Shown here one piece after another: positions 8,388-47,801 of a DNA stretch of 64,000 bases (within the stretch, counting starts at the first letter, position 1; each line of letters opens with the position of its first letter). The notes under the pieces are model-generated. The model saw only the letters and a list, made by a program, of their open reading frames with translations, did no database searches and was not told where the DNA came from. The DNA is taken from positions 312 through 64,311 of the forward strand of contig CALIBK010000006.1 in NCBI GenBank assembly GCA_938045955.1, read 5' to 3'. The position numbers and the translations under genes were made by a program. This DNA comes from an uncultured bacterium (lineage in GTDB: Bacteria > Desulfobacterota > BSN033 > UBA1163).

Positions 8388-8461
8388 CTGGATTACGATC
8401 CCCCTTTCAAATTTTTCATAAATCCTATAATATAGTATAAACGAATTATTTGGAGATAGCT

Positions 8462-12727: not shown

Positions 12728-14014
12728 ATGGATCGATTAAAACGGAAAGCTCCCTCAAGAAACCCCTGGACCTGGGTTCCTTCCCTCTATCTGGCAGAAG
12801 GGATCCCTTACACGATGGCCATGATGGTCTCGGTGGTCCTTTATAAACGACTCGGTCTCTCCAATACCGAGATTGCTCTCTATACAAGCTGGCTCTATCT
12901 CCCCTGGGTCATCAAACCCCTCTGGAGCCCGATCGTGGATCTTCTGGTGAGGAAACGATTCTGGATTCTTTTGACGGAACTTCTTATCAGCCTCTCCTTT
13001 GCCTCCATTGCCTTTACCATTCCTACATCGAGATTTCTTCAATATACTTTAGCTTTTTTCTGGCTGATGGCCTTTAGCTCTGCGACCCATGATATTGCCG
13101 CCGACGGTTTTTATCTCCTGGGACTCTCTCAGGAACTTCAAGCCGCCTTCGTCGGGGTTCGAACTATCTTTTACCGGATCGCCACGATAACGACCAAAGG
13201 GGGTTTAATCCTCCTTGCAGGTTTTCTCGAACAAAGAGGACATTCCATTCCACAGGCCTGGTCGATGACCCTGTGGATCACAGCGATTCTTTTTGCTGCT
13301 CTTCTCCTCTATCATCTTTTTATACTTCCCTTTCCAAAGGAGGATAGATCTGCGAGACGAAATCCTCGCCAACCTTTCCTTTATGAATTTTCCCAAATCT
13401 TCTCTCTCTTCTTTCAGAAGAAAAACATTCTCTCTATCCTTGCCTTCTTTCTCTTTTTTCGTTTTGCTGAAACCCAAATTTTAAAAATCCTACCCCCTTT
13501 CCTTCTCGACCCGGCCTCGAAAGGAGGACTTGGACTCAGCACCACAGAAGTTGGAATCGCTTATGGCACCGTGGGGATGATCTCTTTAATGCTTGGGGGA
13601 CTGCTTGGAGGATACGCCATCTATCGAAAGGGTCTTAAATTCTGGATATGGATCATGGCCTGTGCGATGCATCTCCCAGATGTGGTCTATGTCTTCCTGT
13701 CTCAGATGCTACCCGGAAATTTCTATTTGATCAACTTCTGTGTCGCTCTGGAGCAGTTTGGTTATGGATTCGGGTTTACGGCTTACACGATGTTTATGAT
13801 TATGGTTTCCGAGGGTCCCTACCGGACCGTTCATTACGCTATCTCTACAGGGATTATGGCCTTAGGGATGATGCTCCCGGCCATGGTGAGTGGTTGGCTT
13901 CAGGAGCAGTTAGGGTATCAACACTATTTCCTTTGGGTCCTCATCGCCACGATTCCCGGCTTTATCGTGACAGGGTTGGTCAAGATTGATCCAGAATTTG
14001 GGAAGAAGAAATGA
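12728..14014 (+). CDS. ampG: AmpG-family MFS permease (muropeptide / anhydromuropeptide importer)
   Basis: 428 aa, 12-14 TM. N-terminal AmpG-like motif [11 protein letters not shown]...[20 protein letters not shown]. 4-bp overlap with murU. Confidence 0.7.
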
Positions 14015-14736
14015 GAAGGCGATTCAAGACAGCCTTTATTCTCGGTGCAGGCCTTGGAACGAGGCTTCTTCCTTTAACTGAAAAATGTCCAAAACCCCTC
14101 CTCGAAGTGGGTGGACGACCCCTCATCACCTATGCGATGGATCATCTCATCGAAATAGGGGTGGATCGATTGATTGTGAACACCCATCCTCATCCTGAAC
14201 TCTATTTTAAAAAATTTCCAGACCAAAGATGGCGGGGAGTTCGGATCTTTTTCCGCCATGAACCCGTGCTCCTGGATACAGGAGGAGGGCTTAAGAATAT
14301 TGAAGATCTTCTTTCCGAGGACGAAGCCATTTTCTGTTACAATGGAGACGTCATCAGTAATCTCCCTCTCGAAAGGCTTCGAGAGGAACATGAAAGGCAT
14401 CGGCCGGAAGTAACCCTTGCCCTCCGAAGCCATGGTCCCCTTCTTAACGTAAACCTCAATGAGTCGGGTGAGGTGTGTGATCTTCGACATCAGCTTGGCA
14501 TTAAAGGAGTCCAGAGTCTTCAATTTACAGGAATCTATGCCATAGAGACCTCTTTTCTTAATTATTTAAAAAAGGGTGAATTGACATCGATTGTCACCGC
14601 TTTCCTGAAAAGAATCGTTGATCAACCGGGCTCCATCCGGGGGATCATTATTGATGAAGGAGAATGGGAAGATATTGGTTCTATAAACGCCTACCAAAAA
14701 ATGAAAAAGAGTCTGAAGGAGAAGGGAGTCTATTGA
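14011..14736 (+). CDS. murU: Sugar-1-phosphate nucleotidyltransferase, MurU-like (N-acetylmuramate alpha-1-phosphate uridylyltransferase)
   Basis: 241 aa. [14 protein letters not shown]...KPLL nucleotidyltransferase signature. Sandwiched between ampG and the APH-fold kinase, as in the amgK-murU recycling pair. Confidence 0.7.
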
Positions 14737-14739
14737 AAA

Positions 14740-15786
14740 ATGGCTCCATTTAAATCGCCTGGTTTTGAAGATGAAGGGTTCCTCCCTTTTATTCGGAAAG
14801 CCATTGGACTCTCGGAGTCTATCTCCATTGATCTTTACCCTCTGGAAGGAAGGGGATCAGAGCGGTCCTTTTATCGATTAAAATGGGATCAAAAAGACTC
14901 AGCCATCCTTATTCATTTCGATCCCGATCGAAAAGAGAACACATTATATGCAGGGATTGCCTCCTTTCTTTTCAGAAGGAATATCCCTGTCCCGAAGGTC
15001 ATCTCCCATGATCCCCGTGCTTGCTTTATCATTATCGAAGACCTGGGAGATGTAAGTCTATGGTCCCTCAGAAAAAGGCCCTGGGAGTATCTTCGGACAC
15101 TCTATCGGAAAACCCTTCAGGTCGCCCATCGAATCCACGCCATTTCAGAAGAGGAATTTCCTGATGGAGAAGTTGAACTGATGGAAGGGTTTGGTCCCCA
15201 CCTCTACCAGTGGGAACAGGAATACTTCAAGGAGTATTTCATCAGGAAGGTATGTCGAATCGATCTTCCATTTCCATTTCAGGAAAAACTTGAGGGAGAA
15301 CTTTTCGACCTCCGGGACCGACTTTCAAAAGGGAAAAGGACCCTCATCCATCGAGATTTACAATCGCAAAATGTGATGGTTCGTGAGAACCAAGTCTTTT
15401 TAATCGATTTTCAGGGAATGCGGTTTGGGAATCCTTTTTATGATCTCGGATCCCTTCTCTGTGACCCTTATATGGATTTTTTAGAAGAACAGAGGGAAGA
15501 TCTTCTTGCCTATTATTACGAGCTGAGCCCGAGAGGTCTTGATTGGGAGACTTTTAAGAATTGCTTCTGGGAAGCCTCGGCTCAGCGTCTCATGCAAGCC
15601 CTCGGGGCTTTTGGGTTCTTAGGGGTAAAGAAAGGACTGAGATCTTATCTCGATCATATTCCTCAAGGATTAAAGAATCTCTGGCTCGCCACCTCCAAAG
15701 TCCCCACCCTTTCTACCCTTCAAGAACTCTCAACGACTCTACTCTCGGCCCTTGAATTAATTCATAACTCCAATGAAAAAATTTAA
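14740..15786 (+). CDS. amgK: APH-fold sugar kinase, AmgK-like (anomeric MurNAc/GlcNAc kinase)
   Basis: 348 aa. Catalytic loop LIHRDLQSQNVMV and IDFQG (DFG-like). Starts 3 bp after the murU stop. Confidence 0.7.
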   Translation: MAPFKSPGFEDEGFLPFIRKAIGLSESISIDLYPLEGRGSERSFYRLKWDQKDSAILIHFDPDRKENTLYAGIASFLFRRNIPVPKVISHDPRACFIIIEDLGDVSLWSLRKRPWEYLRTLYRKTLQVAHRIHAISEEEFPDGEVELMEGFGPHLYQWEQEYFKEYFIRKVCRIDLPFPFQEKLEGELFDLRDRLSKGKRTLIHRDLQSQNVMVRENQVFLIDFQGMRFGNPFYDLGSLLCDPYMDFLEEQREDLLAYYYELSPRGLDWETFKNCFWEASAQRLMQALGAFGFLGVKKGLRSYLDHIPQGLKNLWLATSKVPTLSTLQELSTTLLSALELIHNSNEKI

Positions 15787-15807
15787 AGATCAGGTATAAT
15801 TATCCTG

Positions 15808-17283
15808 ATGAAACCTCTTACGGCCATTATTCCATACGATCCAGATCCTTTATGGAATAAGACCCTCGATGCTCTCTCAGACTCTCCTCTGGCGGAGTTC
15901 ATCCTGATCTATCATTCGAAACCTTCTTCCATCCAAAACCCGAAAGTAAAGCTTCTTTTCACCCAAAACATCGGTTCAGGAGAAACTTTCCTTAAGATTC
16001 TAAATTCGATCCAAACCGACTATATCCTCTTTATCTCTGAACCCAGAATTCTTTCCTTTGAGCCCGGGGCCCTGGAGAGATTTATAGAGAAGGCTCGAGA
16101 AAACCGATCCGGGATCGTCTATTCAGATTTTTTTGAAAAAAAAGGAGAGAGAAAAATTTACCACCCCCTGAATGATTATCAGTTCGGCAGTGTGAGAGAC
16201 GATTTTGACTTTGGACCGATCCTCCTCCTTTTCACCCGGGCCATTAAAAAGGTATTAAAAAGATATGGCCTACTTTTAGAAACAGAGTACGGGACCCTTT
16301 ATGATCTGAGGCTCAAAATCTCAATGGATCATCCGATTGATCACTTAAAAGAGCCTCTCTATACGATCTCCCCAAAGGAAGCCATCTCCCGGGAGGAAAA
16401 ACTTTTTTCTTACCTCAACCCCAGGAATCGAAGGATACAGAAGGAACTGGAGAATATCTTCACGGATTACCTCAAAAAGATTGGAGCCTATATTCCTCCA
16501 GACGTTCTGAAGCAGGTCGGGCCGGATACCCTCTCCTATCCGGTGGAAGCCTCTGTGATCATCCCTGTTCGCAATCGAAAGGAAACCATAGGTGAGGCCG
16601 TGGAGAGTGCTTTCTCTCAAAAGACGGATTTCCCTTTCAATATCTTAGTGGTGGATAATCATTCAACGGATGGAACCACAACAGTCCTTTCCAATCTGAG
16701 CAAAAGGAATTCCCGGCTCCTTCATCTCATTCCAAAGAGAACAGATCTCGGGATCGGGGGTTGCTGGAATGAGGCCCTTTATCACCCTGCCTGTGGTCGT
16801 TATGCCATTCAACTGGATTCCGACGACCTTTATTCTGCCCCTTATACTCTTCAAACCATCGTTGATAAATTCAGAAGTGGAAAATTTGCAATGGTCATCG
16901 GTTCATATACTCTGGTGGATTCAAGGCTTAGAGAGATCCCGCCGGGCTTGGTCGATCACCGCGAATGGACAGATGAGAATGGTCATAATAATGCCTTAAG
17001 GGTCAATGGATTTGGAGCTCCAAGGGGCTTTGACACCTCCATTCTCCGAAGGATTGGCTTTCCTAATCTGAGCTATGGGGAGGATTATGCGGTAGGCCTG
17101 AGGATCTGCCGGGAATTCCGAATCGGTCGAATCTATGAAAATCTCTATCTCTGTCGAAGATGGTCAGGAAACAGTGATGCTAATCTTTCCGTAGAAGAGT
17201 TCAATGAGAAGGATGCTCTTAAGGATAAGATTCGAACCGATGAGATCACTGCTCGTCAGAAATTAAACCAATCTAAAGATTAA
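15808..17283 (+). CDS. Family-2 glycosyltransferase (degenerate N-terminal GT-A-like half plus canonical C-terminal GT2 domain)
   Basis: VIIPVRNRKETIGEAVESAFSQ ... ILVVDNHSTDGT and DSDD motifs. Confidence 0.7.
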   Translation: MKPLTAIIPYDPDPLWNKTLDALSDSPLAEFILIYHSKPSSIQNPKVKLLFTQNIGSGETFLKILNSIQTDYILFISEPRILSFEPGALERFIEKARENRSGIVYSDFFEKKGERKIYHPLNDYQFGSVRDDFDFGPILLLFTRAIKKVLKRYGLLLETEYGTLYDLRLKISMDHPIDHLKEPLYTISPKEAISREEKLFSYLNPRNRRIQKELENIFTDYLKKIGAYIPPDVLKQVGPDTLSYPVEASVIIPVRNRKETIGEAVESAFSQKTDFPFNILVVDNHSTDGTTTVLSNLSKRNSRLLHLIPKRTDLGIGGCWNEALYHPACGRYAIQLDSDDLYSAPYTLQTIVDKFRSGKFAMVIGSYTLVDSRLREIPPGLVDHREWTDENGHNNALRVNGFGAPRGFDTSILRRIGFPNLSYGEDYAVGLRICREFRIGRIYENLYLCRRWSGNSDANLSVEEFNEKDALKDKIRTDEITARQKLNQSKD

Positions 17284-21562: not shown

Positions 21563-22882
21563 CTATCTTTCTCTTAGCGTGATCTCTTCGTTTATCTTCT
21601 TCATCATGGCAATATTTTCCGTATGTCCCGTGTATCGGGCAACCACCTTCCCCCGGATGGGACGATTAAGAAGATAAAAATCACCTAAAATATCTAAGAT
21701 TTTGTGCCGAACGAATTCGTCCTTGAATCGAAGTTCTGTGTTCACAATCTTCTCATCATCTACCAGGATAAAATTATGGAGTCGACCTCCACTGCCTAAA
21801 CCCATCCGCTCGAGCATCTCAATATCCTTGAGGAAACCAAACGTTCTTGCAGGAGCAATCTCTTTTTTAAAGACCTCTTCGTTTTCCATGGTAAAATGGA
21901 AGGTCTGTTTCCCGATCGGGGGCGGGTAATCTAAAAAATATTGAACCGAAAAGATCTCCGAGGGTTCAATCGTGAGGGATTTATTTTGATGAATCACCTC
22001 GAGCTTCCGATCAATGACAACCTCCTCTACCTCATCCCCCTGTTCTTCGATTCCTGCCTCCTCAATGATCTTACAGAACTCTAAAGCAGACCCATCCATG
22101 ATCGGAATCTCCTCGATCATTTTGACCATCACATTGGTAATCCGATAGGCATGAAAAACAGCCATCAGATGTTCAATTGTCTTGGCCACAGCCCTTCCCT
22201 TCTTTAATGAAGTGGCATAATCTGTCGTTTGGACAAAATCAAGGTGAGCTGGAACGACTTCCTCCGAGGAGAGATTACCGAAAAGAATTCCATGGTTGGG
22301 AGGGAGGGGTTGAAGGAGAAGTCCTGTCTTCATCCCTGAGTGAAGTCCGGTCCCGTAGAGAACCACACTCTGGCGAATCGTTCGTTGAGAAAACGGGGTA
22401 GGAATAAATTTCTCCTTCCGTGTTTGCGAATGAGGGATCCTCTCGTCCGATGAAAGGGAAGGATGAGAAACCTCCTTATGCCTGGGAATCTCCTCTATAG
22501 GCTCCACTCGGGAGAATTCTTTTCCGCTCTCTAAAGCTCGATGAATTGTTGTTAAAAGAGTATCCAGGGAAAGAGGTTTTTCAATAAAATCAAAAGCTCC
22601 TAACTTTACAGCAGCCATTGCCGTGGAGATGGTCGCATGACCTGAGATCATGATGACCGGTTTATCGGAAAGGGATTTGAGATGTTTTAGCACCTCAATC
22701 CCATCCATTCCAGGCATCCAGATATCAAGAAGGGTCACCTCGGGTTGCTCCTGTTTATATATCTGAAGGGCTTCCTCTCCACTTCTTGCAGTCACCACCT
22801 GGAAGCCTTCATCTTCTAACACACCAACCATAGAACGGACGACTCTTTCTTCATCATCCACAATGAGAATCTTTCTCTTCAT
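21563..22882 (-). CDS. lpxC: Fusion protein: NtrC-type response-regulator receiver domain plus UDP-3-O-acyl-N-acetylglucosamine deacetylase (LpxC)
   Basis: Residues 1-120: REC (ILIVDDE, LLDIWMPGMDG, ISGHATI, FIEKP). Residues about 165-439: LpxC (GTGLHSG, EHLMA, EIPIMDGSA, ARTFGF, FKDEFVRHKILDILGD, GHTEN), with all zinc ligands and catalytic residues conserved. Continuous ORF with no internal Met at the junction. Confidence 0.85.
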   Translation of the reverse strand: MKRKILIVDDEERVVRSMVGVLEDEGFQVVTARSGEEALQIYKQEQPEVTLLDIWMPGMDGIEVLKHLKSLSDKPVIMISGHATISTAMAAVKLGAFDFIEKPLSLDTLLTTIHRALESGKEFSRVEPIEEIPRHKEVSHPSLSSDERIPHSQTRKEKFIPTPFSQRTIRQSVVLYGTGLHSGMKTGLLLQPLPPNHGILFGNLSSEEVVPAHLDFVQTTDYATSLKKGRAVAKTIEHLMAVFHAYRITNVMVKMIEEIPIMDGSALEFCKIIEEAGIEEQGDEVEEVVIDRKLEVIHQNKSLTIEPSEIFSVQYFLDYPPPIGKQTFHFTMENEEVFKKEIAPARTFGFLKDIEMLERMGLGSGGRLHNFILVDDEKIVNTELRFKDEFVRHKILDILGDFYLLNRPIRGKVVARYTGHTENIAMMKKINEEITLRER

Positions 22883-22978: not shown

Positions 22979-24007
22979 TCAAAAATTTCTAACACCCACC
23001 CTTTCTCTCAGGAGTTCATAATCCTCTTCAGTGGAGGCAAATACCCCAATATTTCCTAAACGCACATGGACCAGACCTACAGACTTTACCTCTTGATAGG
23101 CTTCAATCATCTCTGAGAGTTTTGGACTTCGATAACGCTTCATTTGATATTCTGGGAAGAAAGCCAAAATCGTAAAAGGAATGGTGGGTTCCACTTCGAA
23201 TAGAAGTTGAGCGATCTTCTTTAATTGAGGCGTTTCTACAAGATTGGGAATATAGAGGGAAAGGACCTCAAGGACAAACCCTCTTTTAAGAATCTCTTCA
23301 GGGAGTCGGAGAATATTTCGATTAAAACACCCCGTCAACCATTTATGATCTGTCCCTTCAAAGGCTTTGATGTCCAACCAGAAGGAGTCTACCCCCGCCT
23401 CTTTTAGGAGATCAAGGCTCTTAGGGGTCAACCCATATCCATTGGTCTCAATGAGGACCCAGAGTTTTGTTTCTTCCTTAATTCGCCTGCTGCACTCCAC
23501 ATAAAACTCAGGGCAACAGGTAAGATCTCCTCCTGTAAAAGCAACGATATTGCGTGCTGGCCCCCAACCCTGAGGACTTAACACAATATCCCTCTTTTGG
23601 AGAACCTTCGGACAGAGGGAGGAACGTTTTCCATACATCACGCAGGCTCCACAGCAACGACAGGAATCATGAGCATGGAAGGCAGTGGCCCTCTTCCTGG
23701 GTTCTCTCACTGTCACTTCCTTTTCATATTCTTTACAGGCCTTCAAAATATCCTCAGGAGACCACCATTCCCCTTTGGCAATCTTGGTAAAATTCCAGGA
23801 ATGACATTTACGGCAGGAAAAGTTACAGCCCGATTGATAGATAGAAAGGTAGTTTTCTGGTCTTGAGAGATGGACCGAGGAGATGAGCCTCAAAGGACCT
23901 TGATCCGTTTTTTTTAAAGTCACCTCGCAGGCTAACGCCTTTCCCCCCTCCACCTCCGTGTAACAACTTCCCTGAGGATAACCCTGTTGAATCAGATTAC
24001 ATCTCAT
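22979..24007 (-). CDS. Radical SAM protein, PflX / COG1313-like (PFL-activase homologue) with an extra Cys cluster
   Basis: 342 aa. CNFSCRKC (CxxxCxxC) radical-SAM motif plus a second cluster CRCCGAC...C. Confidence 0.7.
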   Translation of the reverse strand: MRCNLIQQGYPQGSCYTEVEGGKALACEVTLKKTDQGPLRLISSVHLSRPENYLSIYQSGCNFSCRKCHSWNFTKIAKGEWWSPEDILKACKEYEKEVTVREPRKRATAFHAHDSCRCCGACVMYGKRSSLCPKVLQKRDIVLSPQGWGPARNIVAFTGGDLTCCPEFYVECSRRIKEETKLWVLIETNGYGLTPKSLDLLKEAGVDSFWLDIKAFEGTDHKWLTGCFNRNILRLPEEILKRGFVLEVLSLYIPNLVETPQLKKIAQLLFEVEPTIPFTILAFFPEYQMKRYRSPKLSEMIEAYQEVKSVGLVHVRLGNIGVFASTEEDYELLRERVGVRNF

Positions 24008-24111
24008 CTAAAAAATTCTATCACAGGCTTTCTTCTACTTGCAAGGGAAGAGAACCCCATTGTATAAAAGATTCAAAGGAAAGAATCGAAGCATTTCTTA
24101 GGAGGAGTCCA

Positions 24112-24882
24112 ATGGAAGAGAAAATCAGACAGGTGGCTCAATGGATTCTTCATTCCAGGAGGATCGTGATATTCTGTGGAGCAGGATTGAGTACCGAATC
24201 GGGGATCCCCGATTTTCGTAGCCCTGGTGGGGTGTGGGATAGATATAACCCGGAAGATTTTTATTTCCAGAACTTTATTTCAAGCGAAGCTTCCCGGGAG
24301 AAATACTGGCAGATGGCTACTGAAATGTATGAATCGATTAAGGGAGCTAAACCCAATCAAGCTCATCTGGCAATCGCAGAATTGGAAAGGTTAGGTAAGC
24401 TGGATTGTGTGATTACCCAGAATATTGACGGCCTTCATCATAAAGCAGGAAATTCTCCGGAAAAGATCATCGAGCTTCATGGAACCGCTCTCTTCGTCAC
24501 GTGTTTAAATTGCCACAAGCGATATGATCGGGATGAGATTCAAGAACGAATTCAGAAAGGGATAAAGGTTCCTTATTGTGACGATTGTGGCGGCCCATTG
24601 AAACCTGCCACCATCTCCTTTGGTCAATCAATGCCTGAGAAGGAGACCCAGGAAGCCTATCAAAGATCCTCCTCCTCTGATCTTTTCATTGTGATTGGCT
24701 CTTCCTTAGTCGTTCAACCTGCGGCCTCTATGCCACTGGTGGCAAAACGGAACGGGGCTAAGTTGGTGATCATCAATAGAGACCCTACCCCTTATGATCA
24801 TTTAGCCGACCTTGTCATAAACGATCTCGCCGGTAAAACGATGGCAGGTATCCTGGAAATCGTTAGATCAGAATTGGCATAA
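24112..24882 (+). CDS. cobB: NAD-dependent protein deacylase, Sir2 family (CobB-like)
   Basis: 256 aa. GAGLSTESGIPDFR Rossmann motif, zinc ribbon CLNC...CDDC, catalytic His in ELHG. Strong SD TAGGAGGAG. Confidence 0.85.
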   Translation: MEEKIRQVAQWILHSRRIVIFCGAGLSTESGIPDFRSPGGVWDRYNPEDFYFQNFISSEASREKYWQMATEMYESIKGAKPNQAHLAIAELERLGKLDCVITQNIDGLHHKAGNSPEKIIELHGTALFVTCLNCHKRYDRDEIQERIQKGIKVPYCDDCGGPLKPATISFGQSMPEKETQEAYQRSSSSDLFIVIGSSLVVQPAASMPLVAKRNGAKLVIINRDPTPYDHLADLVINDLAGKTMAGILEIVRSELA

Positions 24883-25078
24883 GGATTGATCGATAATTTG
24901 GTAACTTTTTGTCCATAAAAAGGACAAATATTGACTTTCCGAGATTCAAATCTCCTCTCTTTTTTAAAAAATTTTGTAAATTCAATTAATTATATTTCCC
25001 AAAAGTTGGTATTTAATTTGCTATGAGATAATTCATGGCCGCCGGGAACTTTAATCTCTGGATAAGAAGATAAAATCC

Positions 25079-25606
25079 ATGTTTTTTCAAAAGGTTTTGG
25101 AAATACCCGTTCTAATTTTAATCGGATCCCTTCTTTTAGGATGTGCGGCATTAAAACCCAAGGAAGAGAATTCCTCTAAACCCCTTGAAATGAAAATTGA
25201 ACAAATTAAAGAAGAAAAAAAGGCCGATGAACCTCCTTCAGAAGTCCAATCTTCAACCCCGACACCGAGTCCGACCCCATCCCATTCTTCACCCCCTGAA
25301 CCTACAAAAATCGTCTCTCCCTCTCCATCTATTATCCAGACTCCAGAACCTCCTTCGACACCATCCCCCTCCTATCGATCAGCCTATATTGTCTGGTCTT
25401 ATGTTAATCTCCGTGAAGGACCTGGAATAAATTATAAAGTGATTGGCACTGCGAAGAAAGGAACCACTATCACTATTCTCGAAGAAAAGGGAAACTGGTT
25501 CCGTGTTCGATTGGAAAATGGAAAAGAAGCATGGATGAGTAAGGGGGCCACTTCCGAAGCCCCTCAACCTCCCCCTCGACCTTCTCACAAACCTAAACCG
25601 ATGTAA
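25079..25606 (+). CDS. Lipoprotein with a Pro/Ser/Thr-rich linker and a C-terminal bacterial SH3 (SH3b) domain
   Basis: Signal peptide plus lipobox LLGC. Low-complexity PSPTPS region. SH3_3-like C-terminus (YKVIGTAKKGTTITILEEKGNWFRV). Confidence 0.6.
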   Translation: MFFQKVLEIPVLILIGSLLLGCAALKPKEENSSKPLEMKIEQIKEEKKADEPPSEVQSSTPTPSPTPSHSSPPEPTKIVSPSPSIIQTPEPPSTPSPSYRSAYIVWSYVNLREGPGINYKVIGTAKKGTTITILEEKGNWFRVRLENGKEAWMSKGATSEAPQPPPRPSHKPKPM

Positions 25607-25622
25607 GGGTGGAAGAGAGGAT

Positions 25623-26654
25623 ATGTTGATCTGCAAGAAATGTTTTCTTGAATATAATGAAGAGAATAAGTTCTGCAGTGAATGTGGAGGCCCTCTTTCT
25701 CCCAAACAGATAATCTCTTCAGGAAAACAAGAACCCTCCCAGGAAGAAGAGGAAAAATCCAAAGAAAAATTTATCTGCCCTCAATGTAAAATCATTTATG
25801 AAAGGACCACTGCTTGTATTCGATGCGGAGAAGAGGTGGTGCCCCTTTCCTGTTTTCATAGAGAAAAAGAGAGGGTTATAGAAGAGGAGGTCGAGGAGCG
25901 GCCAGAATCACAGACCGTTGAAATTTCTCAGCCGGACAAAGAAGTGATGGAACCTCCCTCATCTCCTAAAATAGATAAAAGTACCTTCGAAATTTCTACT
26001 CCTCCTTCCGAACGATCTGAGAAAAAAGGATATGCGAGGACCATTTATGGAGGGGTGCTCTATCGAAGGCCTAAAAGAGATTATAAACGCCTCGGTTTTT
26101 ATCTTGGCGAATTGGTGATCATGATCATTGCAGGAGGATATCTCCTTTGGTCTTTTTCCGTTCATCTTTTTTCAAAGGAGGTTTCTTCAAAAACGAAGAA
26201 TTCTCTGGGGCCATCTGTTCAAGAGCTCTCGTCTTCCATTTCCCCATCTCCCTCCCCTTCTTCCTCTATGACCCCCCTACCAATCATTACTTCACTGGAA
26301 GAGACAGAGACGGTAAAGAAAATAAGGGAACTTCTTGAAAATATTCGGCAGGCAAATCTCCACCAGGATATGGAGTTATTTCTCTCTTGTTTTTCCAAAG
26401 AGTTTAAAGATCGAGAAGGAAAGAAAAGGGCTACCCTTGAGTCCTGGAAGAAATTTAACTATATCGAGCTCTCCTATCATTTGAAAAAATTCTCTCTCTC
26501 CTCCTCCGAAACAGCCAGAGCTAAGGTGGTCTGGTCCCTCAAATACTGTCCAAAGAGCGGAGGTTCTCCTCAAGAGAACAGAACCGTTTTAGAAGTCCTT
26601 TTTCAAAAAGAGGAAGAGGGCTGGAAGATTAAGGAGGTTATCCCGGAAAGTTAA
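25623..26654 (+). CDS. Membrane-anchored double zinc-ribbon protein with a C-terminal NTF2-like / DUF4440-like domain
   Basis: CKKC...CSEC and CPQC...CIRC ribbons, one TM (LGFYLGELVIMIIAGGYLLW), Ser/Pro linker, then an alpha+beta C-terminal domain. Confidence 0.45.
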   Translation: MLICKKCFLEYNEENKFCSECGGPLSPKQIISSGKQEPSQEEEEKSKEKFICPQCKIIYERTTACIRCGEEVVPLSCFHREKERVIEEEVEERPESQTVEISQPDKEVMEPPSSPKIDKSTFEISTPPSERSEKKGYARTIYGGVLYRRPKRDYKRLGFYLGELVIMIIAGGYLLWSFSVHLFSKEVSSKTKNSLGPSVQELSSSISPSPSPSSSMTPLPIITSLEETETVKKIRELLENIRQANLHQDMELFLSCFSKEFKDREGKKRATLESWKKFNYIELSYHLKKFSLSSSETARAKVVWSLKYCPKSGGSPQENRTVLEVLFQKEEEGWKIKEVIPES

Positions 26655-26657
26655 ACC

Positions 26658-27677
26658 TTATCTCTTTTTTTGATTTCCAAGAAATCCTTCATCCAGAATC
26701 CTTCCTGTTCCATCGAATTCTACATAATAAATAAAGGGTGAACGGAAGCCAGGAATATAAAATCTTAAGTCCATAAATTCCACCCGATGCCTTTCCCCAT
26801 TTGATTCGATAGCCTTCACGACCGGAAAACGTGCGAACCAATAAAAGAATCGAATTCCATCTGTATTTAGGGCTCTTTTGACCCAAGGAGAATTCGGTAA
26901 CTTCTCTACAGAACGAAAAAGAATATCCGAAGGGGGACTATAGAGATGATCCAGTTTTCTTAGGTAGGAACCCGAAGAAGCTTCTGGAGAAATCTTCTTT
27001 TCTCGTCTCAAATCCACAAATCCTTGATAAATGCTATGATGGGTCTCTATATAAAGGGCCCAGCGCAAGGGAGAGAGAGGTTGAGGGAGGGCTGCAACCT
27101 GAAGGATTTCTCCGTTCAGTCTCCTGGAAAAGTCCTGGGCTAACCTCAATGCCTTCTGATGGTGAAACCAGCAAAATATAATGTAAATCGTAAGTGAAAA
27201 AAGAATCCCCCGGCAGATCCACGAAGCTCCTTTTCGAATAAAAAGACTTCCGATCCATGGAAGGATAAGGATTCCTGAGAAAATGAAATCAATAATGAAG
27301 ACCAGATCCCATGAAACTCTGTTTTCAGAAAAAGGAGAGAGGATCATGGTCCCATAAGAGGTCAAAAGATCGAGCAGGACATGGCTCACCAATCCGAAAA
27401 GACTGATTAAATAGAAACTCCAGAAATAAGAACACTTCGATACTTTTGTAAACAGCCAGCCCAGGAACCCTGCATAAAAAGGAAGTAAGAGAAAGGAGTG
27501 GGTGAAATCACGATGATATTGAAGATAGAATTGATGATTGAAAAGACCCAGGACAAAGTCTATATCCGGAAAGACTCCCGCTACCATCCCTGCAACACTT
27601 CCCCAGCGCCCTATTCTCGGATCGTCGATCGCCTTTGAAATGACTCCTCCTGTAATGGTATGAGTAATGGAGTCCAC
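26658..27677 (-). CDS. Membrane-bound metal-dependent hydrolase, YdjM / DUF457 family, with an extra C-terminal domain
   Basis: N-terminus MDSITHTITGG... with His-rich membrane hydrolase motifs (HRDFTHS). Confidence 0.5.
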   Translation of the reverse strand: MDSITHTITGGVISKAIDDPRIGRWGSVAGMVAGVFPDIDFVLGLFNHQFYLQYHRDFTHSFLLLPFYAGFLGWLFTKVSKCSYFWSFYLISLFGLVSHVLLDLLTSYGTMILSPFSENRVSWDLVFIIDFIFSGILILPWIGSLFIRKGASWICRGILFSLTIYIIFCWFHHQKALRLAQDFSRRLNGEILQVAALPQPLSPLRWALYIETHHSIYQGFVDLRREKKISPEASSGSYLRKLDHLYSPPSDILFRSVEKLPNSPWVKRALNTDGIRFFYWFARFPVVKAIESNGERHRVEFMDLRFYIPGFRSPFIYYVEFDGTGRILDEGFLGNQKKR

Positions 27678-27722: not shown

Positions 27723-28475
27723 CTAAGCCCTTACCCTTTTAAACCAGTCCACGGTAAGATCGATGGCCCGCTGGCGATGGTCCGGGTGGGTCAACCGATG
27801 ATCTGCCCCTCCAATAATATGCATCTCTTTGGGAAGGTCCAGATGGTTAAAGATGGTGAAAGGTTGTTCCAGTGGAACAAGTTCATCTTTTTCACCATGG
27901 ATGATCAGGCAATTTGAAACCATGGGAAGAAGAGGAAGGAGTCGATGTCTCGGAAGATCTTCAAAAAAAGAGTCTGGAGGAAGGGGATACTCCTCCTCTT
28001 GTTTCCTGTGGCGAAGGTCGTCCATATGAAGGGGAGTAGCCCAGATGACGACCCCTTTTATCGTCCGATCCTTCGAAGCCTGAATGAGAGAGAGAAACCC
28101 TCCAAGGCTGGAACCCACCAGTCCAATTCCACCCGTGGCTCCCAGCCGGTTTTTTACAAACTCGATCGCTGATCGAAGATCCGCCAATTTTTTACTAATC
28201 GTGTTGTCCTCCTCACCCCCTTCACTCTCTCCAATCCCCCTAAAATCAAACCTGAGCAAAGCCATCCCTTCTCTGGAGAATCTTTCCCCCAATGCCACAT
28301 ACTTTTCACTATTTTTACTGGAGAGCAACCCATGGGAGGCGATCACACAGAAAGGATTCTTATGATCGGGAAGATGGAGGATCCCTGAAAGTTTCATTCC
28401 CTCGCTCATGAAATAGACCTTTTCGGCTCTCATCTGTTTTTCTCCATTTCTATCAATCCCATTGCCCTTATTCAT
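27723..28475 (-). CDS. Alpha/beta-hydrolase fold protein (dienelactone hydrolase / esterase-like)
   Basis: GxSxG nucleophile elbow VGSSLGG. Asp and His (GGADHRLT) later. Overlaps the upstream rSAM gene by 8 bp. Confidence 0.65.
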   Translation of the reverse strand: MNKGNGIDRNGEKQMRAEKVYFMSEGMKLSGILHLPDHKNPFCVIASHGLLSSKNSEKYVALGERFSREGMALLRFDFRGIGESEGGEEDNTISKKLADLRSAIEFVKNRLGATGGIGLVGSSLGGFLSLIQASKDRTIKGVVIWATPLHMDDLRHRKQEEEYPLPPDSFFEDLPRHRLLPLLPMVSNCLIIHGEKDELVPLEQPFTIFNHLDLPKEMHIIGGADHRLTHPDHRQRAIDLTVDWFKRVRA

Positions 28476-30171
28476 CTTTCAATTTAACCCCTGCTTCTTT
28501 CATCGCCTGGAGATACTCCTCCTTCAACTTCTCTTTTGGGATTCCGTGATCGATGAAATCCCAGGGAAAAACTTCATCGAGCTCCCTTTCCCGATATACA
28601 TAGAAATCAGGATTGAGGTTGGTCACTCGAAAGGCCTCGGTCCAGTTTCCCTGAAGATGATGAGCAGCCATCAGAACTCTTCCCACCCTTCGATCTCCTC
28701 TTGAAAGAAAGGCCTGAAGGTAGGCCCATTTTGGAAGATCATGAAGGATCCCCATATGTCTTTCGCCCTGAACCCCTTTCTTCAGGACTCTTAATTTTCT
28801 CCTCAACTCTCCTAATTCTTCAAAGGGAGCCCATTGAAAAGGGGTATGGGGCTTCGGGACAAAAGGGCTTACGTTCAGAATCACCCTCCAGCCCTTCTTC
28901 TGTTCCTTTAGATGGGAAAGAAGATGGTGCTTAATCTTTTTAGAAAGAAGAAGGATTCCTTTTACATCCTCTTCGGTCTCAAAGGGGAGACCAATCAGAA
29001 AGTAGGTTTTGATCTGGTATATCCCATTCTTGATGAACATCTCGATGGCCTTCAGAATCTCCTCGTCTGAAAACCCTTTCTTGATGATTTTTCGGAGGCG
29101 CTCTGATCCTGCCTCCGGGGCAATCGCTGCGCTCTGCCCCCCTCCCTCTCTAAGAAATTGAACAAGGGATGGCGAGATCGCATCCACCCTCAACGAGGCC
29201 AGAGAGATTCCCCCCTGTTGATGAAGGATCTCCTCGCAGAGGGAGAGGAGATGAGGATAATCGGAAACGGCTGTCCCTGCCAAACCAATCCTTTTTTTCT
29301 TGGTGAGGGCCTCATTAGATAGGTTTTTGAGAACCGAAAGGCTCCTGTTTCGAAAAGGATAGTAAACGAAACAGGCCGCACAGAATCGGCATCCCCTCGG
29401 GCATCCTCGATTAAGCTCGATCAGGGCCATCTCGCTGAATTCCGTCTCCGGAGTAAAGAGAACGGATTGAGTGCCAAAGCGGTTGAGATCAGATATCCAT
29501 CTTCTTTTTATCTTATTCGGAAGACCAGGATCCGGAGTGATTTCGTCTACCCTCCCATCTTCCCTGTAGGTCACGTGGTAAAATTGGGGGACATAGATTC
29601 CTTCGATAAGAGCTAATCTCTTCAACAGAACTTCTCTTCTGTCCCGGAATGATCGGAAGGTCTTTAAAAATTCATCTATGACCTCTTCCGCCTCCCCTAA
29701 AATAAAAAGGTCAAAAAAATCACTCAGGGGCTCCGGGTTCAGAAAGAGGGCCACCCCTCCACCCAGAATAAGAGGATCGCTTTCTTTTCGAAATCTTCGT
29801 TCCAATGGAAGATGGGCCAAGTGAAGGATCGTTAAGATATTGAGAAAATCATTCTCAAAGGAAACAGAGAAGGCCAAGATATCAAATTCGGTAAGAGGCT
29901 TCTGGGATTCGAGGGAGAAAAGGGGGGTTCCAGTCTTTTGGTATTCCGGAAGATCTTCCGGATCCGGAAGGAAGGCTCTCTCGCAAACCACATCCTCCTC
30001 CTGGTTGAATCTCTGATAAACGCTCTGAAATCCAAGATTGGACATTCCGACATAATAAGAGTTGGGATAGATAAGACCTATGGAGATCTTCCCGCCCCAT
30101 GGTTTTTGATAGACCCCTTTTTCTTTCTCAAGCCTCTTTCTGGCTTTCTGGATATGCTTCCAGGAAATCAT
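28468..30171 (-). CDS. B12-binding-domain radical SAM protein (TIGR03960-like, with a DUF2344-like C-terminal extension)
   Basis: 567 aa. N-terminal cobalamin-binding-like region, CPRGCRFC radical-SAM cluster, long C-terminal domain. Confidence 0.65.
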   Translation of the reverse strand: MISWKHIQKARKRLEKEKGVYQKPWGGKISIGLIYPNSYYVGMSNLGFQSVYQRFNQEEDVVCERAFLPDPEDLPEYQKTGTPLFSLESQKPLTEFDILAFSVSFENDFLNILTILHLAHLPLERRFRKESDPLILGGGVALFLNPEPLSDFFDLFILGEAEEVIDEFLKTFRSFRDRREVLLKRLALIEGIYVPQFYHVTYREDGRVDEITPDPGLPNKIKRRWISDLNRFGTQSVLFTPETEFSEMALIELNRGCPRGCRFCAACFVYYPFRNRSLSVLKNLSNEALTKKKRIGLAGTAVSDYPHLLSLCEEILHQQGGISLASLRVDAISPSLVQFLREGGGQSAAIAPEAGSERLRKIIKKGFSDEEILKAIEMFIKNGIYQIKTYFLIGLPFETEEDVKGILLLSKKIKHHLLSHLKEQKKGWRVILNVSPFVPKPHTPFQWAPFEELGELRRKLRVLKKGVQGERHMGILHDLPKWAYLQAFLSRGDRRVGRVLMAAHHLQGNWTEAFRVTNLNPDFYVYRERELDEVFPWDFIDHGIPKEKLKEEYLQAMKEAGVKLKDE

Positions 30172-30284
30172 CTTTAGGTGATTCGTATTCCAAATCAGGG
30201 AGTTAATAAATCTATTCTATCACAAACCCAAAGAGCGAACCAATAAAAATAGACCATACGAATCGCCTTCAGATGAGTCCTTAT

Positions 30285-31505
30285 TTAATCCGCCTGCTTT
30301 CTCAAGAATGTGGGAATATCAAAACGATCCTGATCCTCTGCGGGGAGATCATAGGGTTCGTCTAATTTCAACTCGTCATAGCGTTCCGTGGCTTTGGTTC
30401 TCCTCATGAAAGTCGGAATCTCCTGATGCTTTTCCTTCATACTGAATGAAAAAGGAGGAATCTCTCGATCCTGTTCCCTATGGTTGAAGGAAGGGGTATA
30501 AATTCTCTTGAACCGATTCAGATTCGATTTTTCAAATCGTTTCTCCTCGACCTTTCCAAAGCCGGTCGCTATCACGGTCACCCGAATCTCCTCCTTCATC
30601 TCCGGATCGATCACCATCCCCCATATAATATTGGCATCCTCATGGGCCTCTTTCTGGATAAGGCTGGTCGCTTCATTGATCTCACTGAGGGTCATATTCT
30701 CTCCACCTGTAATGTTGATGAGAAGCCCCCGAGCCCCTTCAATGGATATATCCTCCAGAAGAGGACTGGAGATCGCCCTCTGGGCTGCTTCGATGGACCG
30801 ATTCTCTCCGGAAGCGATCCCTGTCCCCATCAAGGCCATTCCTGTTTCTGACATAATCGTTCGCACATCCGCAAAATCCAGATTAATGATTCCAGCTCCG
30901 ACAATGATATCCGAAATCCCCTTGGCCGCATGGTAGAGGATTTCGTCGGCTTTTTTGAAGGCCTCCAGAAGGGTCATATTCTTTCCACAGATACTGAGAA
31001 GCCTCTGATTAGGAATCGTGATCAGGGCGTCAGCGGTCATTTTTAAATTAGCCAGTCCTTCCTCTGCCTGTTTCATGCGTTTCTTTCCTTCAAAATGGAA
31101 TGGCTTGGTCACGATCGCCACCGTCAAAGCTCCCAGTTCTCGAGCAACCTCTGCCACCACTGGTGCACCTCCCGTTCCAGTACCCCCTCCGAGACCCGCA
31201 GTGATAAAAACCATATCCGCTCCTTTTAGGGCCTCACGGATCTGATCTATATCCTCTAAGGCCGCCTTCCTCCCAATCTCAGGATTTGCTCCTGCTCCTA
31301 ACCCTTTAGTAAGATTGGCCCCTAACTGCAACTTGATAGGGGCTAAATTCGCGGCCAGCGCCTGGGCATCGGTATTAGCAGCAATAAATTCTACACCCGT
31401 GAGGTTATAGTGAATCATCGTGTTGATGGCATTATTCCCTCCCCCTCCAATTCCAATGATTTTAACTTTTGCAGCCATGTTTTGGTTCTCATCGAATTCA
31501 ATCAT
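30285..31505 (-). CDS. ftsZ: Cell division GTPase FtsZ
   Basis: GGGGNNA tubulin signature, T7 loop and the conserved C-terminal peptide DIPTFLRKQ. Start placed at MIEFDE (31505) because a perfect SD AAAGGAGGT lies 4 nt upstream; the ORF track extends to 31565. Confidence 0.95.
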
Positions 31506-31633
31506 ATCGACCTCCTTTGATTGAAGAGATTTATGGTTTGGGGATCCATGGATTTGAGGCCCCAATCAAAATCTTTCAGACATCATTTCTTCCCTGACCC
31601 CCTGAATCCTTGACCCCGAAATCTCGCCTGAAT

Positions 31634-32860
31634 TTAAAAGAATTCTCCAATCCATTCTCTCATTCGATGGGTGACCTTACTAAAAATATTTTCCTCTCCC
31701 ACCCGAAATCGACTCTTTCCACGGTTTCGACTTCCATAGAGGACCAAACCCACTCCCGTCGCATAGATCGGACTACTGACCAGATCGACCAGACCACCGA
31801 TCCCCGTGGGGACCCCTCTTCGAACAGGAAGATTAAAAATCTGTTCCGTGAGCTCAGGCACCCCTTCTAAAATCGCACTTCCACCGGTGAGGATCACACC
31901 AGCAGGGATGAGATTCGCATAACCCATCCGGACCACCTCCTCATGCACCAGAGTAAGGATTTCCTCCACCCTCGGTTCAATGATTTCTGCCAATGTCTGC
32001 CTGGAGAGCACCCGGGGCCTTCTTCCCCCCACGCTGGGAACCTCGATCGTTTCATCCTTTCGAACCATTGAAGTCAAGGCACATCCATATCGGATTTTAA
32101 TCTTCTCGGCTTCCTCTAACGGGGTTCGTAACCCTATAGAGATATCATGGGTAATATGGTTTCCAGCTAAAGAGAAGACAGCCGTATGTTTAATGGATCC
32201 ATTAGAAAAGATGACCAGATCGGTCGTTCCCCCTCCGATGTCAATGATCGCAGCCCCCAATTCCTTTTCTTCTGGGGTGAGGACAGCCTCGCTTGAACCC
32301 AATTGTTCCAGAACAATATCAGCCACATCGAGTCCTGCCCGATTAGCACATTTAATAATATTCTGAGCAGAGGTGATCGCTCCGGTCACAATATGGACCT
32401 TCCCCTCCAGTCTAATCCCTGACATCCCGACAGGATCTCTGATCCCATCCTGGCCATCCACAATGAATTCTTGAGGAAGAACATGGATGATCTCTCGATC
32501 CATCGGGATAGCTACGGCACTGGCTGCATCAATCACTCGTCTGACATCATTGGAAGTAATCTCTTTATTCTTGATCGCGATAATTCCATGGCTGTTGATC
32601 CCTTTAATATGCCCCCCTGCGATTCCGGCATAGACCGAGGTAATATGACAATCCGCCATGAGTTCCGCTTCCTCCACCGCTTTTTTAATCGATTGGACCG
32701 TACTCTCGATATTGACGACGACTCCTTTTCGTAACCCCTTCGAGGGATGGGTCCCGAGCCCAATGATTTGAACCTGACCATCAACGATCTCTCCCACCAC
32801 GGTACAGATTTTGGTGGTCCCGATGTCCAGGCCCACCACTAATGAATCCTTTTTGCCCAT
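31634..32860 (-). CDS. ftsA: Cell division protein FtsA
   Basis: Actin-like ATPase motifs (VGLDIGTTKI, DIGGGTTD). Confidence 0.95.
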   Translation of the reverse strand: MGKKDSLVVGLDIGTTKICTVVGEIVDGQVQIIGLGTHPSKGLRKGVVVNIESTVQSIKKAVEEAELMADCHITSVYAGIAGGHIKGINSHGIIAIKNKEITSNDVRRVIDAASAVAIPMDREIIHVLPQEFIVDGQDGIRDPVGMSGIRLEGKVHIVTGAITSAQNIIKCANRAGLDVADIVLEQLGSSEAVLTPEEKELGAAIIDIGGGTTDLVIFSNGSIKHTAVFSLAGNHITHDISIGLRTPLEEAEKIKIRYGCALTSMVRKDETIEVPSVGGRRPRVLSRQTLAEIIEPRVEEILTLVHEEVVRMGYANLIPAGVILTGGSAILEGVPELTEQIFNLPVRRGVPTGIGGLVDLVSSPIYATGVGLVLYGSRNRGKSRFRVGEENIFSKVTHRMREWIGEFF

Positions 32861-33696
32861 CTCTCACCCCCTCCTTTCTCATGTCCTTCTTGAGAAACTC
32901 TTCTGACCACCATTCTCCTCACATCACTGCAGTCGATAAAAGCCACTGGAATCCCTCTCTTTCGAAGGTCTTTCAGGATCAATGAAAGCCTTTTTAACTT
33001 CTCTCTGAATTGATCCCAGCCCATTCTCACCTTAATCCCCTCGGTTTGAGTAAAAAGATGAATCCCCTCCTGTCTATCCATGTGGACCTCGGAGATTCTT
33101 TCCAGAAGTGGAACTCTTTCTTGTTCTATAGTCTTCAGCAGCTCGAGGACTTTCAGAAGAAGGTCCTTTACATCTTGCGGATCTTTTTCTACTGCCAATT
33201 TGGTGAATCCTGTAACAAAAGGAAAGTTATATCCATCCCTTTCCCCTACGGGAGAAAAGATCACCCCTTTTGAATCAAGGTAATAAAGTTCGTCGAGTTG
33301 GAGAATGGCTACGGGCTTTCTCTCTTTAATCTCAATGACCAATCTATCCGGGAAAACCTTTCTGACTCTCACCTCCTCGACCCATGGATGGGAGGAGACC
33401 TTCTTGCAAATCTCTTTCAATGAGATCGTAAAAAGATTGGGTCTCCCCTCGAGCCCAAGGAGGGAATGAAGGCTTTTCTCTTCAATCTTTTGACACCCGC
33501 GAATCTCTATCTCTTTAAGGTGGAAAAAGGAATCCTCTGAAAGGGAAAGATACAGATGGTGTCCCACTAAAAGAGAGAGCGCGAGGAGAAGAAGCTGAAA
33601 GGCTATCCGAATCGACTTCTTCAGCCATCCATGGAGCTTCTCTCCAACCCTCTCGATCTCCTTCCTTTTAGGTCTGAAAAATTTCTCTTGACTCAT
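32839..33696 (-). CDS. ftsQ: Cell division protein FtsQ (POTRA domain)
   Basis: N-terminal TM followed by POTRA and FtsQ beta domain; sits between ddl and ftsA. Confidence 0.85.
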   Translation of the reverse strand: MSQEKFFRPKRKEIERVGEKLHGWLKKSIRIAFQLLLLALSLLVGHHLYLSLSEDSFFHLKEIEIRGCQKIEEKSLHSLLGLEGRPNLFTISLKEICKKVSSHPWVEEVRVRKVFPDRLVIEIKERKPVAILQLDELYYLDSKGVIFSPVGERDGYNFPFVTGFTKLAVEKDPQDVKDLLLKVLELLKTIEQERVPLLERISEVHMDRQEGIHLFTQTEGIKVRMGWDQFREKLKRLSLILKDLRKRGIPVAFIDCSDVRRMVVRRVSQEGHEKGGGERWAKRIH

Positions 33697-34646
33697 TTTA
33701 AGATTTTCTTCTCGTTTTCGATTTTCAAGGAAGCCCCGAGGAGAATCTTTTCCACCAAGTCTTCAAAAGGAATTCCTGCATAGGCTGCGGCCTTGGGGAG
33801 AAGGCTCGTCTCTGTCATTCCTGGCATGGTATTCACATCGATGACATAAGGATTTCCTTCTTCATCGGTCATGAGATCCACTCGAGCACAATCGGAACAT
33901 CCCAGGGCCCGAAAGGCCCGCAGGCTTACCTCCTGAGCAAAGAGATACTTCTCTCGATTTAAAGGAGCGGGAATAATATACTCTGTCTCCCCTTTTGTAT
34001 ATTTTGAGTGATAATCATAAAAACCACTCTTAGGTGCAATCTCAATGATAGGAAGGGGAATATTATGGAGAACCCCGACCGTGATCTCTTTTCCTTTCAT
34101 AAAGACCTCCACCAGAATCTCTTCGTCATACTTTCCAGCCTCTTTGAGCGCTGGAAGAATCTCCTCCGCTTTCCTGACAATGGAAACCCCCAGGGTAGAT
34201 CCCTCCCTTGAAGGCTTGACGACGAAAGGAAGAGGAATGGAGATCTGATGGGCCTTTTTCTCAATCTCCTCTCGGTGGAGAACCTCAAAGGGAGGCGTAG
34301 GGATCTTCTCGTAAAGGAATATCTTTTTTGCCATAATCTTATGGAGGGCCAACGCACTGGCCAGCACCCCTGAGCCCGTGTAGGGAATCCTCATCAGTTC
34401 CAGCATCCCCTGAATCGTCCCGTCCTCTCCGTATCTTCCATGGAGAGCTATAAAGGCCACTTCAATTCTTTCCTGAAGGAGTTTCTCTGCGAGATCGTAC
34501 CCTACGTCAATTCCACATACCTGATAGCCCTTATCAAGAAGGGCCTTTATAATAGCCCTTCCTGTTTTGAGGGAAATCTCCCTTTCTCTGGAGAGTCCAC
34601 CCATTAATACTCCAATCTTCTTTTTCTTCAGAGAAGATTCCTTCAT
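33693..34646 (-). CDS. ddl: D-alanine--D-alanine ligase
   Basis: ATP-grasp fold with Ddl motifs (GVLMGGLSREREISL, HGRYGEDG). Confidence 0.95.
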   Translation of the reverse strand: MKESSLKKKKIGVLMGGLSREREISLKTGRAIIKALLDKGYQVCGIDVGYDLAEKLLQERIEVAFIALHGRYGEDGTIQGMLELMRIPYTGSGVLASALALHKIMAKKIFLYEKIPTPPFEVLHREEIEKKAHQISIPLPFVVKPSREGSTLGVSIVRKAEEILPALKEAGKYDEEILVEVFMKGKEITVGVLHNIPLPIIEIAPKSGFYDYHSKYTKGETEYIIPAPLNREKYLFAQEVSLRAFRALGCSDCARVDLMTDEEGNPYVIDVNTMPGMTETSLLPKAAAYAGIPFEDLVEKILLGASLKIENEKKILK

Positions 34647-35545: not shown

Positions 35546-35577
35546 TGGATCCTTTCATTTCTTTTCAATTGAACCTC

Positions 35578-36951: not shown

Positions 36952-36963
36952 TTCGGTAAAAAT

Positions 36964-39152: not shown

Positions 39153-39161
39153 TTTATTCCC

Positions 39162-40508: not shown

Positions 40509-40520
40509 GTCGACCTTTTC

Positions 40521-41597: not shown

Positions 41598-41601
41598 CTT
41601 T

Positions 41602-44576: not shown

Positions 44577-44587
44577 GGAGATTCCTC

Positions 44588-46896: not shown

Positions 46897-46905
46897 CAGG
46901 ATGCC

Positions 46906-47790: not shown

Positions 47791-47801
47791 TGATGTGCAT
47801 C

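Follow-up and report, generated by a model that had tools for sequence, protein, structure and literature searches.

Described Systems and the REC-LpxC Protein

The deacetylase LpxC is the control point of lipid A synthesis for the outer membrane and a major antibiotic target. What is known about its control comes almost entirely from a few Proteobacteria and amounts to regulated proteolysis and coupling to MurA, the latter known from Pseudomonas aeruginosa. In Escherichia coli, the stand-alone enzyme is controlled by FtsH/LapB/PbgA proteolysis (PMC13333357, PMC12444477). Here we analyze a gene that encodes a receiver (REC) domain and a complete LpxC in one polypeptide, REC-LpxC. The gene is located in a stretch of 64,000 nucleotides (nt) from an uncultured bacterium of the Desulfobacterota (lineage BSN033; UBA1163), taken from GenBank assembly GCA_938045955.1, contig CALIBK010000006.1, positions 312 to 64,311. 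This whole stretch is referred to as the window, and coordinates given without a locus number are window positions. Loci used for comparison are numbered with the prefix L and proteins with the prefix P.

In Desulfovibrio vulgaris, lpxC is the single mapped target of the regulator DVU2934, which shares an operon with the kinase DVU2931 and the HD-GYP regulator DVU2933 (PMC3333781). The lpxC transcript of Rhodobacter sphaeroides rises 8.8-fold when ntrYX is absent (PMC7240162). Predictions of sigma54 control of LpxC exist for Myxococcia (PMC12316311) and for Leptospira, where the promoter is placed upstream of lpxC (PMC12655853). REC-LpxC resembles the NtrY/NtrX systems (DVU2931/DVU2934 type) in its NtrX receiver motifs, in the same type of kinase found in its relatives, and in its slot downstream of ntrY. 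The regulatory target, LpxC and lipid A, is also the same. However, the fusion has neither the sigma54 AAA+ nor the HTH_8 domain, and its output is the enzyme itself, so that control would be post-translational rather than transcriptional.

The only LpxC fusion that we found discussed in the literature is LpxC-FabA/FabZ of Bacteroidota and the PVC/FCB groups (NF009667). LpxC is one domain of a bifunctional polypeptide there as well, but its partner is a C-terminal metabolic enzyme, whereas REC-LpxC carries an N-terminal signalling domain; the score of the window protein against NF009667 is 210 bits, with a cut-off of 465. The textbook case of an enzyme gated by its fused receiver is the REC-methylesterase CheB, in which the unphosphorylated receiver occludes the active site. 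CheB shares with REC-LpxC the N-terminal receiver, the flexible linker and the C-terminal hydrolase, and seems to be the most plausible mechanistic analogy, although its catalytic fold and pathway are unrelated to LpxC. With canonical LpxC, the fusion has the fold, the zinc site and the catalytic residues in common. It differs in carrying a regulation module, a phospho-receiver, in its own polypeptide.

An initial annotation of the window, made from the DNA sequence by a model, knew of no characterised REC-LpxC architecture. Likewise, no description of such a fusion was found in the literature, an earlier passing mention in response-regulator census papers being possible. The words 'response regulator', 'receiver', 'fusion' and 'fused' occur in neither of two recent reviews on the regulation of lipid A and LpxC.

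Domains and Residues of the Fusion Protein

The gene and its parts are as follows (aa, amino acids).

21563-22882, minus strand: REC-LpxC fusion gene, 439 aa, a single open reading frame with an ATG start and with PF00072 and PF03331 in one polypeptide; 249 bits against TIGR00325 (cut-off 187)
22529-22882, minus strand: receiver domain, NtrX-like, aa 1-118, with the acidic pocket D9/D10, the phospho-acceptor D53, S80, F99 and K102
22724-22726, minus strand: codon of the phospho-acceptor D53
22394-22528, minus strand: inter-domain linker, aa 119-163, disordered and unconserved
21563-22393, minus strand: LpxC deacetylase domain, aa 164-439, with E237, the zinc ligands H238/H393/D397, and K394, D401, T347 and H420

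The reading of the gene in the initial annotation, a continuous frame of 439 aa with a linker of roughly 45 aa and an expected PF00072-PF03331 order, is confirmed. In Pfam, Response_reg (PF00072) matches aa 5-113 with 106 bits, and the LpxC model (PF03331), aligned from position 1 to 266 of its 268 positions, matches aa 166-430 with 284 bits. TIGR00325 is the LpxC equivalog of NCBIfam, and its curated cut-off is passed; the match reaches position 274 of 297, and the C-terminal extension of the E. coli enzyme is absent from the fusion.

The C-terminal part (aa 164-428) aligns with the solved LpxC structures of P. aeruginosa, Aquifex aeolicus and E. coli with an E value of about 1e-48. Its motifs EHLMA (E237-H238), HKILDILGD (H393/K394/D397/D401) and GHTEN (H420) match the zinc and catalytic residues of the solved P. 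aeruginosa enzyme, and T347, F348 and K394 align with substrate-contacting positions of solved LpxC. Together with the TIGR00325 score, this alignment bears out the earlier claim of a full-length LpxC with intact zinc and catalytic positions. The N-terminal part aligns with NtrC-family receivers of known structure, namely A. aeolicus NtrC1 and NtrC4 and Brucella NtrX. All the receiver motifs quoted previously are present: D9/D10, LLDIWMPGMDG with D53, ISGH with S80 and FIEKP with K102; F99 is there too. No solved structure matched both halves of the fusion together.

Conservation was assessed in 279 fused sequences. The phospho-site residues D9, D10, D53, S80, F99 and K102 are kept in 272-278 of them, including those of the lineage of the window, in which the fused gene is an orphan. 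The zinc and catalytic residues of LpxC are invariant in 279 of 279, with the exception of T347 (278). This points to purifying selection for canonical chemistry in both domains. Mean identity across the fused relatives is 43% for REC, 48% for LpxC and 12% for the linker, whose length ranges from 18 to 93 aa in diverse relatives. By every measure of sequence and fold applied, the fusion belongs to the LpxC and receiver families, and both halves look functional.

Ancestry of the Receiver

The window REC is 56% identical to NtrX receivers (range 47-63%) vs. 31% to other NtrC-family receivers of the same loci. It contains the NtrX signature motifs DIWMPGMDG, MISGH[GA]TI.TA and GAFDFIEKPLSLD and retains the kinase-facing helix alpha1. 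The NtrC-type receiver of the initial annotation can therefore be specified as NtrX-like. Among the NCBIfam response-regulator models, NtrX (NF051870) matches the N-terminus best, with 122 bits against a cut-off of 600, the match covering the REC part only.

Pfam finds neither an AAA+ (PF00158) nor an HTH_8 (PF02954) domain in the window protein, and longer fused relatives have an AAA+ module without GAFTGA and no HTH_8. Without these domains, the fusion falls outside the family of NtrX-type sigma54 activators, from which it seems to descend. The stand-alone NtrX-like regulators of the loci compared reach 507 bits against the NtrX equivalog cut-off of 600 and keep GAFTGA; to our knowledge, Brucella NtrX is without it. 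A REC tree is consistent with the NtrX affinity and weakly resolved. With 116 columns the alignment is too short to settle the origin, so synteny and motifs carry that point.

Recurrence and Spread of the Architecture

The identical 439-aa protein occurs in two separate assembly records, one in ENA and one in Logan. The best 120 clusters retrieved with the window protein all have the REC + LpxC architecture, at 69-100% identity; the best 120 retrieved with a distant fused homologue are built in the same way. The architecture is present in hundreds of 90%-identity clusters from JGI, ENA, NCBI and Logan, along with thousands of word-sharing matches. Among species-representative genomes (one genome per species), 18 fused loci were found, two of them on short contigs. 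The architecture is therefore not rare, and in metagenomes it is very common. Its full-length genes come from metagenome-assembled genomes labelled Syntrophorhabdus, Syntrophobacter, Syntrophobacteraceae, other Thermodesulfobacteriota, Candidatus Binatia, Acidobacteriota and Nitrospinaceae, and the closest species-representative relative is a Syntrophorhabdus protein with 73% identity. Public annotation names these proteins simply LpxC or NtrX.

The LpxC domain of the window protein has a median identity of 54% to fused sequences vs. 37% to stand-alone LpxC. In a neighbour-joining tree of LpxC domains, the fused sequences, both the short form and a longer one described below, make up one clade apart from all sampled stand-alone LpxC (bootstrap 80/100), and the two forms are interleaved inside it. 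The clade sits on a long branch and is 33-42% identical to stand-alone LpxC. REC-LpxC is apparently a large family with a single origin. Four LpxC-only sequences of about 283-292 aa (P0155, P0167, P0187 and P0197) are also nested in the fused clade; they may be truncated gene calls or cases of secondary receiver loss.

Fused Loci and Stand-Alone lpxC Loci

In distant relatives, the order of genes at the fused locus is yebC-ruvC-ruvB-ntrY-[REC-LpxC]-DUF2203-queG. Where lpxC stands alone, the order is yebC-ruvC-ruvB-lpxC-(DUF4390)-ntrY-ntrX, with the genes from lpxC onward on the same strand and yebC-ruvC-ruvB upstream in many loci. In the fused locus the stand-alone lpxC slot is empty, and REC-LpxC occupies the position held elsewhere by ntrX. 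Nine of the 18 fused loci (L010-L016, L021 and L024) have an NtrY-type kinase gene (NtrY_N-HAMP-PAS-HisKA-HATPase) immediately before the fused gene in the same orientation, ending 0-86 nt upstream of it (about 370 nt in L011). None of the fused loci has a second LpxC within about 10 kb on either side.

The lpxC-ntrY-ntrX arrangement was found in Geobacter/Desulfuromonadales, Desulfobacterales, Syntrophales and Acidobacteriota; examples are L029 (at about 10017), L038, L036, L033 and L047. The kinase of these loci is of the NtrY type, with the domains NtrY_N-HAMP-PAS-HisKA-HATPase, and the activator is NtrX-like, with the domains REC-Sigma54_activat-HTH_8. A sigma54 -24/-12 element (TGGCAY-N5-TTGCW) precedes 21 of 32 stand-alone lpxC genes, mostly by 45-100 nt, the chance expectation being 0.04 per window; in the same comparison, the fused genes have essentially no such element upstream. 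The motif counts imply that sigma54 and an enhancer-binding protein are likely to be needed for lpxC transcription in both Desulfobacterota and Acidobacteriota. A Desulfovibrio locus, L070, has exactly the layout of the DVU2934 operon. Direct two-component control of LpxC, which the initial annotation had proposed, finds support in comparative genomics, through the kinase adjacency and the occupation of the ntrX slot.

Two further features of these loci were noted. In the arrangements of Desulfobacterales and Syntrophales, lpxC and ntrY are regularly separated by a DUF4390 gene (L047:8675-9262 and about 30 other loci). The best NCBIfam match of the NtrY-type kinase L013:7740-9971 is the Leptospira LIC_11548 kinase family, with 281 bits, which is below the cut-off. 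Judged by its locus tag, LIC_11548 presumably adjoins the sigma54 activator EbpB (LIC_11549). The link between kinase, activator and lpxC may thus extend to spirochaetes.

A longer form of the fusion, REC-Sigma54_activat-AAA_lid_14-LpxC, is abundant. It comprises about 720-745 aa, has LpxC in place of HTH_8 and is often labelled 'NtrX' in JGI. The genes of this form are listed below by locus (proteins P0121 and P0391-P0509).

L023:9848-11980: longer-form gene
L022:1278-3284: longer-form gene
L087:8001-10205: longer-form gene
L089:8001-10190: longer-form gene

In two of three contexts (L087 and L089), the NtrY-type kinase gene is again directly upstream. In the AAA+ module of the longer form, GAFTGA has been lost and both Walker B and the arginine finger have degenerated, with Walker A retained. 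This module may have been repurposed for oligomerisation or nucleotide binding. In one orphan lineage of REC-LpxC, an HDOD gene and a PAS-HisKA-HATPase kinase gene (L018:7499-9724 and L019:3572-5790) lie divergently right beside the fused gene, and this kinase may be an alternative partner.

Structural Model and Coupling of the Domains

An AlphaFold2 model of the fusion has a mean predicted local distance difference test (pLDDT) score of 79.6 and a predicted template modelling (pTM) score of 0.80. It consists of a (beta-alpha)5 receiver, a disordered linker (aa 122-160, pLDDT 24-34) and an LpxC fold that superimposes on A. aeolicus LpxC with a template modelling (TM) score of 0.90-0.91 and a root-mean-square deviation of 2.5 A over 272 columns. 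Such a pTM in spite of the disordered linker suggests that, in the model, the two domains pack in a defined way. A fixed docking of this kind is what a CheB-like inhibitory gate needs. With a linker of variable length that is neither ordered nor conserved, a signal would not pass through a rigid connector. It would have to act by direct contact between receiver and LpxC, by receiver dimerisation or by stability.

Insert II of LpxC forms the acyl-chain passage (window 21740-21835). Its low pLDDT in the model could be due to a shallow alignment or to real flexibility or regulation at this place.

Proposed Origin and Mechanism, and Alternatives

We consider it rather probable that the fusion is an NtrX-derived response regulator with LpxC as its output, that its input is probably an NtrY-type kinase, and that control of lpxC has moved from transcription to the protein. 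In the ancestral state, lpxC would have stood beside the genes for an NtrY-type kinase and an NtrX-like activator and been transcribed from a sigma54 promoter under their control. LpxC would then have replaced the DNA-binding end of the activator, giving REC-AAA+-LpxC, and later loss of the decaying AAA+ module would have left REC-linker-LpxC, the type seen in the window. A membrane-embedded NtrY-type kinase is envisaged to phosphorylate D53, and the phosphorylated receiver may alter LpxC activity in the same polypeptide. The most likely route, by analogy with CheB, would be relief of an inhibitory REC-LpxC contact. Lipid A flux would thereby be set post-translationally by an envelope or redox signal. 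As to the direction of control, we lean, with low confidence, towards activation of LpxC by phosphorylation, by analogy with the ancestral activator, whose phosphorylated form switches lpxC on. We expect the partner kinase to be of the NtrY type and to be encoded elsewhere in the genome. The fused gene is probably the main LpxC of the cell, and replacement of the stand-alone gene in situ at the ancestral ruvB-ntrY locus is circumstantial support for its being the sole copy.

Several observations weigh against this reading. The 64-kb window encodes no NtrY-type kinase, and in all of L001-L009 the gene is an orphan. The linker, unconserved and 18-93 aa long, argues against rigid coupling. The model is of low confidence at insert II (aa 350-381, pLDDT <50) but confident in the rest of the LpxC domain. 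On TIGR00325, the fused clade scores 228-253 bits vs. 340-361 bits for neighbouring stand-alone LpxC. The REC tree is poorly resolved, and the trees are neighbour-joining only.

The score difference of about 100 bits speaks for the possibility that REC-LpxC is an accessory paralogue, a signal-dependent second copy adding lipid A flux conditionally to that of an ordinary stand-alone lpxC elsewhere in the genome. The fused domains also form their own divergent clade, which includes a few sequences of about 290 aa with LpxC alone. We nevertheless regard this possibility as unlikely. The stand-alone slot of the shared ruvB-ntrY locus is empty wherever the fusion is present, no fused locus has a second LpxC within the distance given above, the catalytic residues are invariant (279/279), and the equivalog cut-off is passed. 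The long branch, the 33-42% identity to stand-alone LpxC and the poorly modelled acyl-chain passage would also suit a changed function, in which the fused clade deacetylates another substrate or serves a different glycolipid pathway under two-component control. This seems quite improbable to us, given that the zinc and catalytic set is complete, T347, F348 and K394 are kept at the substrate-contacting positions, the score exceeds the trusted cut-off of the equivalog, the fold match is close (TM 0.90), and the fusion has taken the place of the housekeeping lpxC at the shared locus.

Just as improbable, in our estimate, is that the receiver is a relic, or a constitutive dimerisation or stability tag, devoid of a signalling role in the orphan lineage. 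The absence of an adjacent kinase gene in the lineage of the window and the visible decay of AAA+ in the longer forms agree with such a reading. However, each of the six phospho-site residues persists in at least 272 of the 279 sequences, the orphan lineage included, and REC (43% identity) has stayed near LpxC (48%), in contrast to the linker with its 12%; the receiver also still has helix alpha1 and the NtrX signature motifs. Finally, the initial annotation had named an assembly or frameshift fusion of two genes as a possible refutation. The architecture recurs in two assembly records, in hundreds of clusters from JGI, ENA, NCBI and Logan, and in 18 species-representative genomes, so the artefact is rejected and its probability can be taken as negligible.

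Surroundings of the Gene in the Window

The following features of the window were considered in relation to the fused gene.

22979-24007, minus strand: radical SAM gene, 342 aa, weakly PFL-activase/YjjW-like, 96 nt before the fusion gene; conserved upstream of it only in L003, L005 and L007
21133-21549, minus strand: HTH_17/excisionase-family DNA-binding gene, downstream of the fusion; conserved there only in close relatives
24015-24044, minus strand: sigma70-like promoter candidate before the radical SAM gene, a consensus match of a kind no more frequent than in shuffled sequence; may drive the three-gene unit
8450-11005, plus strand: histidine kinase with the Pfam domains 4xPAS-HisKA-HATPase, of a different type from NtrY

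The HTH_17 gene has a TTG start 13 nt past the stop of the fusion; the public gene call starts 31 nt past it. In relatives with at least about 70% identity, the fused gene lies between the radical SAM and HTH_17 genes, with a Sir2/SH3/YdjM block adjacent and ftsZ about 7.4 kb away. In relatives at 55-57% identity (L008 and L009), the flanking genes encode a sigma factor, Hsp20 and an Asp/Glu racemase, and the radical SAM and HTH_17 genes are absent. The neighbours are as described in the initial annotation, which saw in them a tight same-strand unit. Their conservation in close relatives only speaks for lineage synteny rather than for a conserved module, and the idea that radical SAM and HTH_17 form a functional module with REC-LpxC was rejected. 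The block kept in close relatives (24112-27677) comprises genes for YdjM, a 343-aa protein, an SH3-domain protein and Sir2 and is divergent from the radical SAM-fusion-HTH_17 genes.

The fused gene is not beside ntrY in L001-L009, the lineage of the window, and neither a further response regulator nor a further lipid A gene is present in the 64-kb window. The multi-PAS kinase (8450-11005), considered as a candidate partner, finds no support: its identity to NtrY-type kinases is 23%, limited to the kinase core, and it is not syntenic in L003.

The dcw cluster is complete from mraZ to ftsZ (28468-48245, minus strand; ftsZ 30285-31565) and is followed after ftsZ by a Radical_SAM_N2 gene, not by lpxC. 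The initial annotation was right about this absence and took it as a hint that the fusion is the only LpxC. The argument is weak because lpxC in related lineages is normally beside ruvB/ntrYX, not ftsZ.

Another cluster in the window (12728-17283), kept in L003, encodes an MFS/BT1 transporter, an NTP_transferase, an APH/EcKL-type kinase and a family-2 glycosyltransferase. The set looks like a Lic-type (phosphocholine-like) pathway for surface decoration.

Significance

REC-LpxC appears to give response regulators a new enzymatic output and LpxC a new mode of control; it is common in databases but apparently uncharacterised. To the wider proposition we give an even chance: that REC-LpxC and REC-AAA+-LpxC make up a widespread undescribed class of response regulators, in which an NtrY-type phosphorelay would directly set the sole LpxC and a sigma54 activator would have captured its own target gene. 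The series is unusually complete, from lpxC with a sigma54 promoter beside ntrYX, through REC-(decaying AAA+)-LpxC, to REC-LpxC, and illustrates the merging of a regulator with its target. It also names a concrete candidate family of kinases and ties the puzzling envelope phenotypes of NtrYX to LpxC. In addition, it flags a systematic annotation problem, as the fused proteins are labelled plain 'LpxC' or 'NtrX'.

If the proposed reading is true, LpxC would be under direct phosphorylation-dependent control in several little-studied phyla, namely Thermodesulfobacteriota, Binatota, Acidobacteriota and Nitrospinota. This would be a two-component analogue of the enterobacterial PbgA-LapB-FtsH circuit and a traceable case of rewiring from transcriptional to post-translational control.

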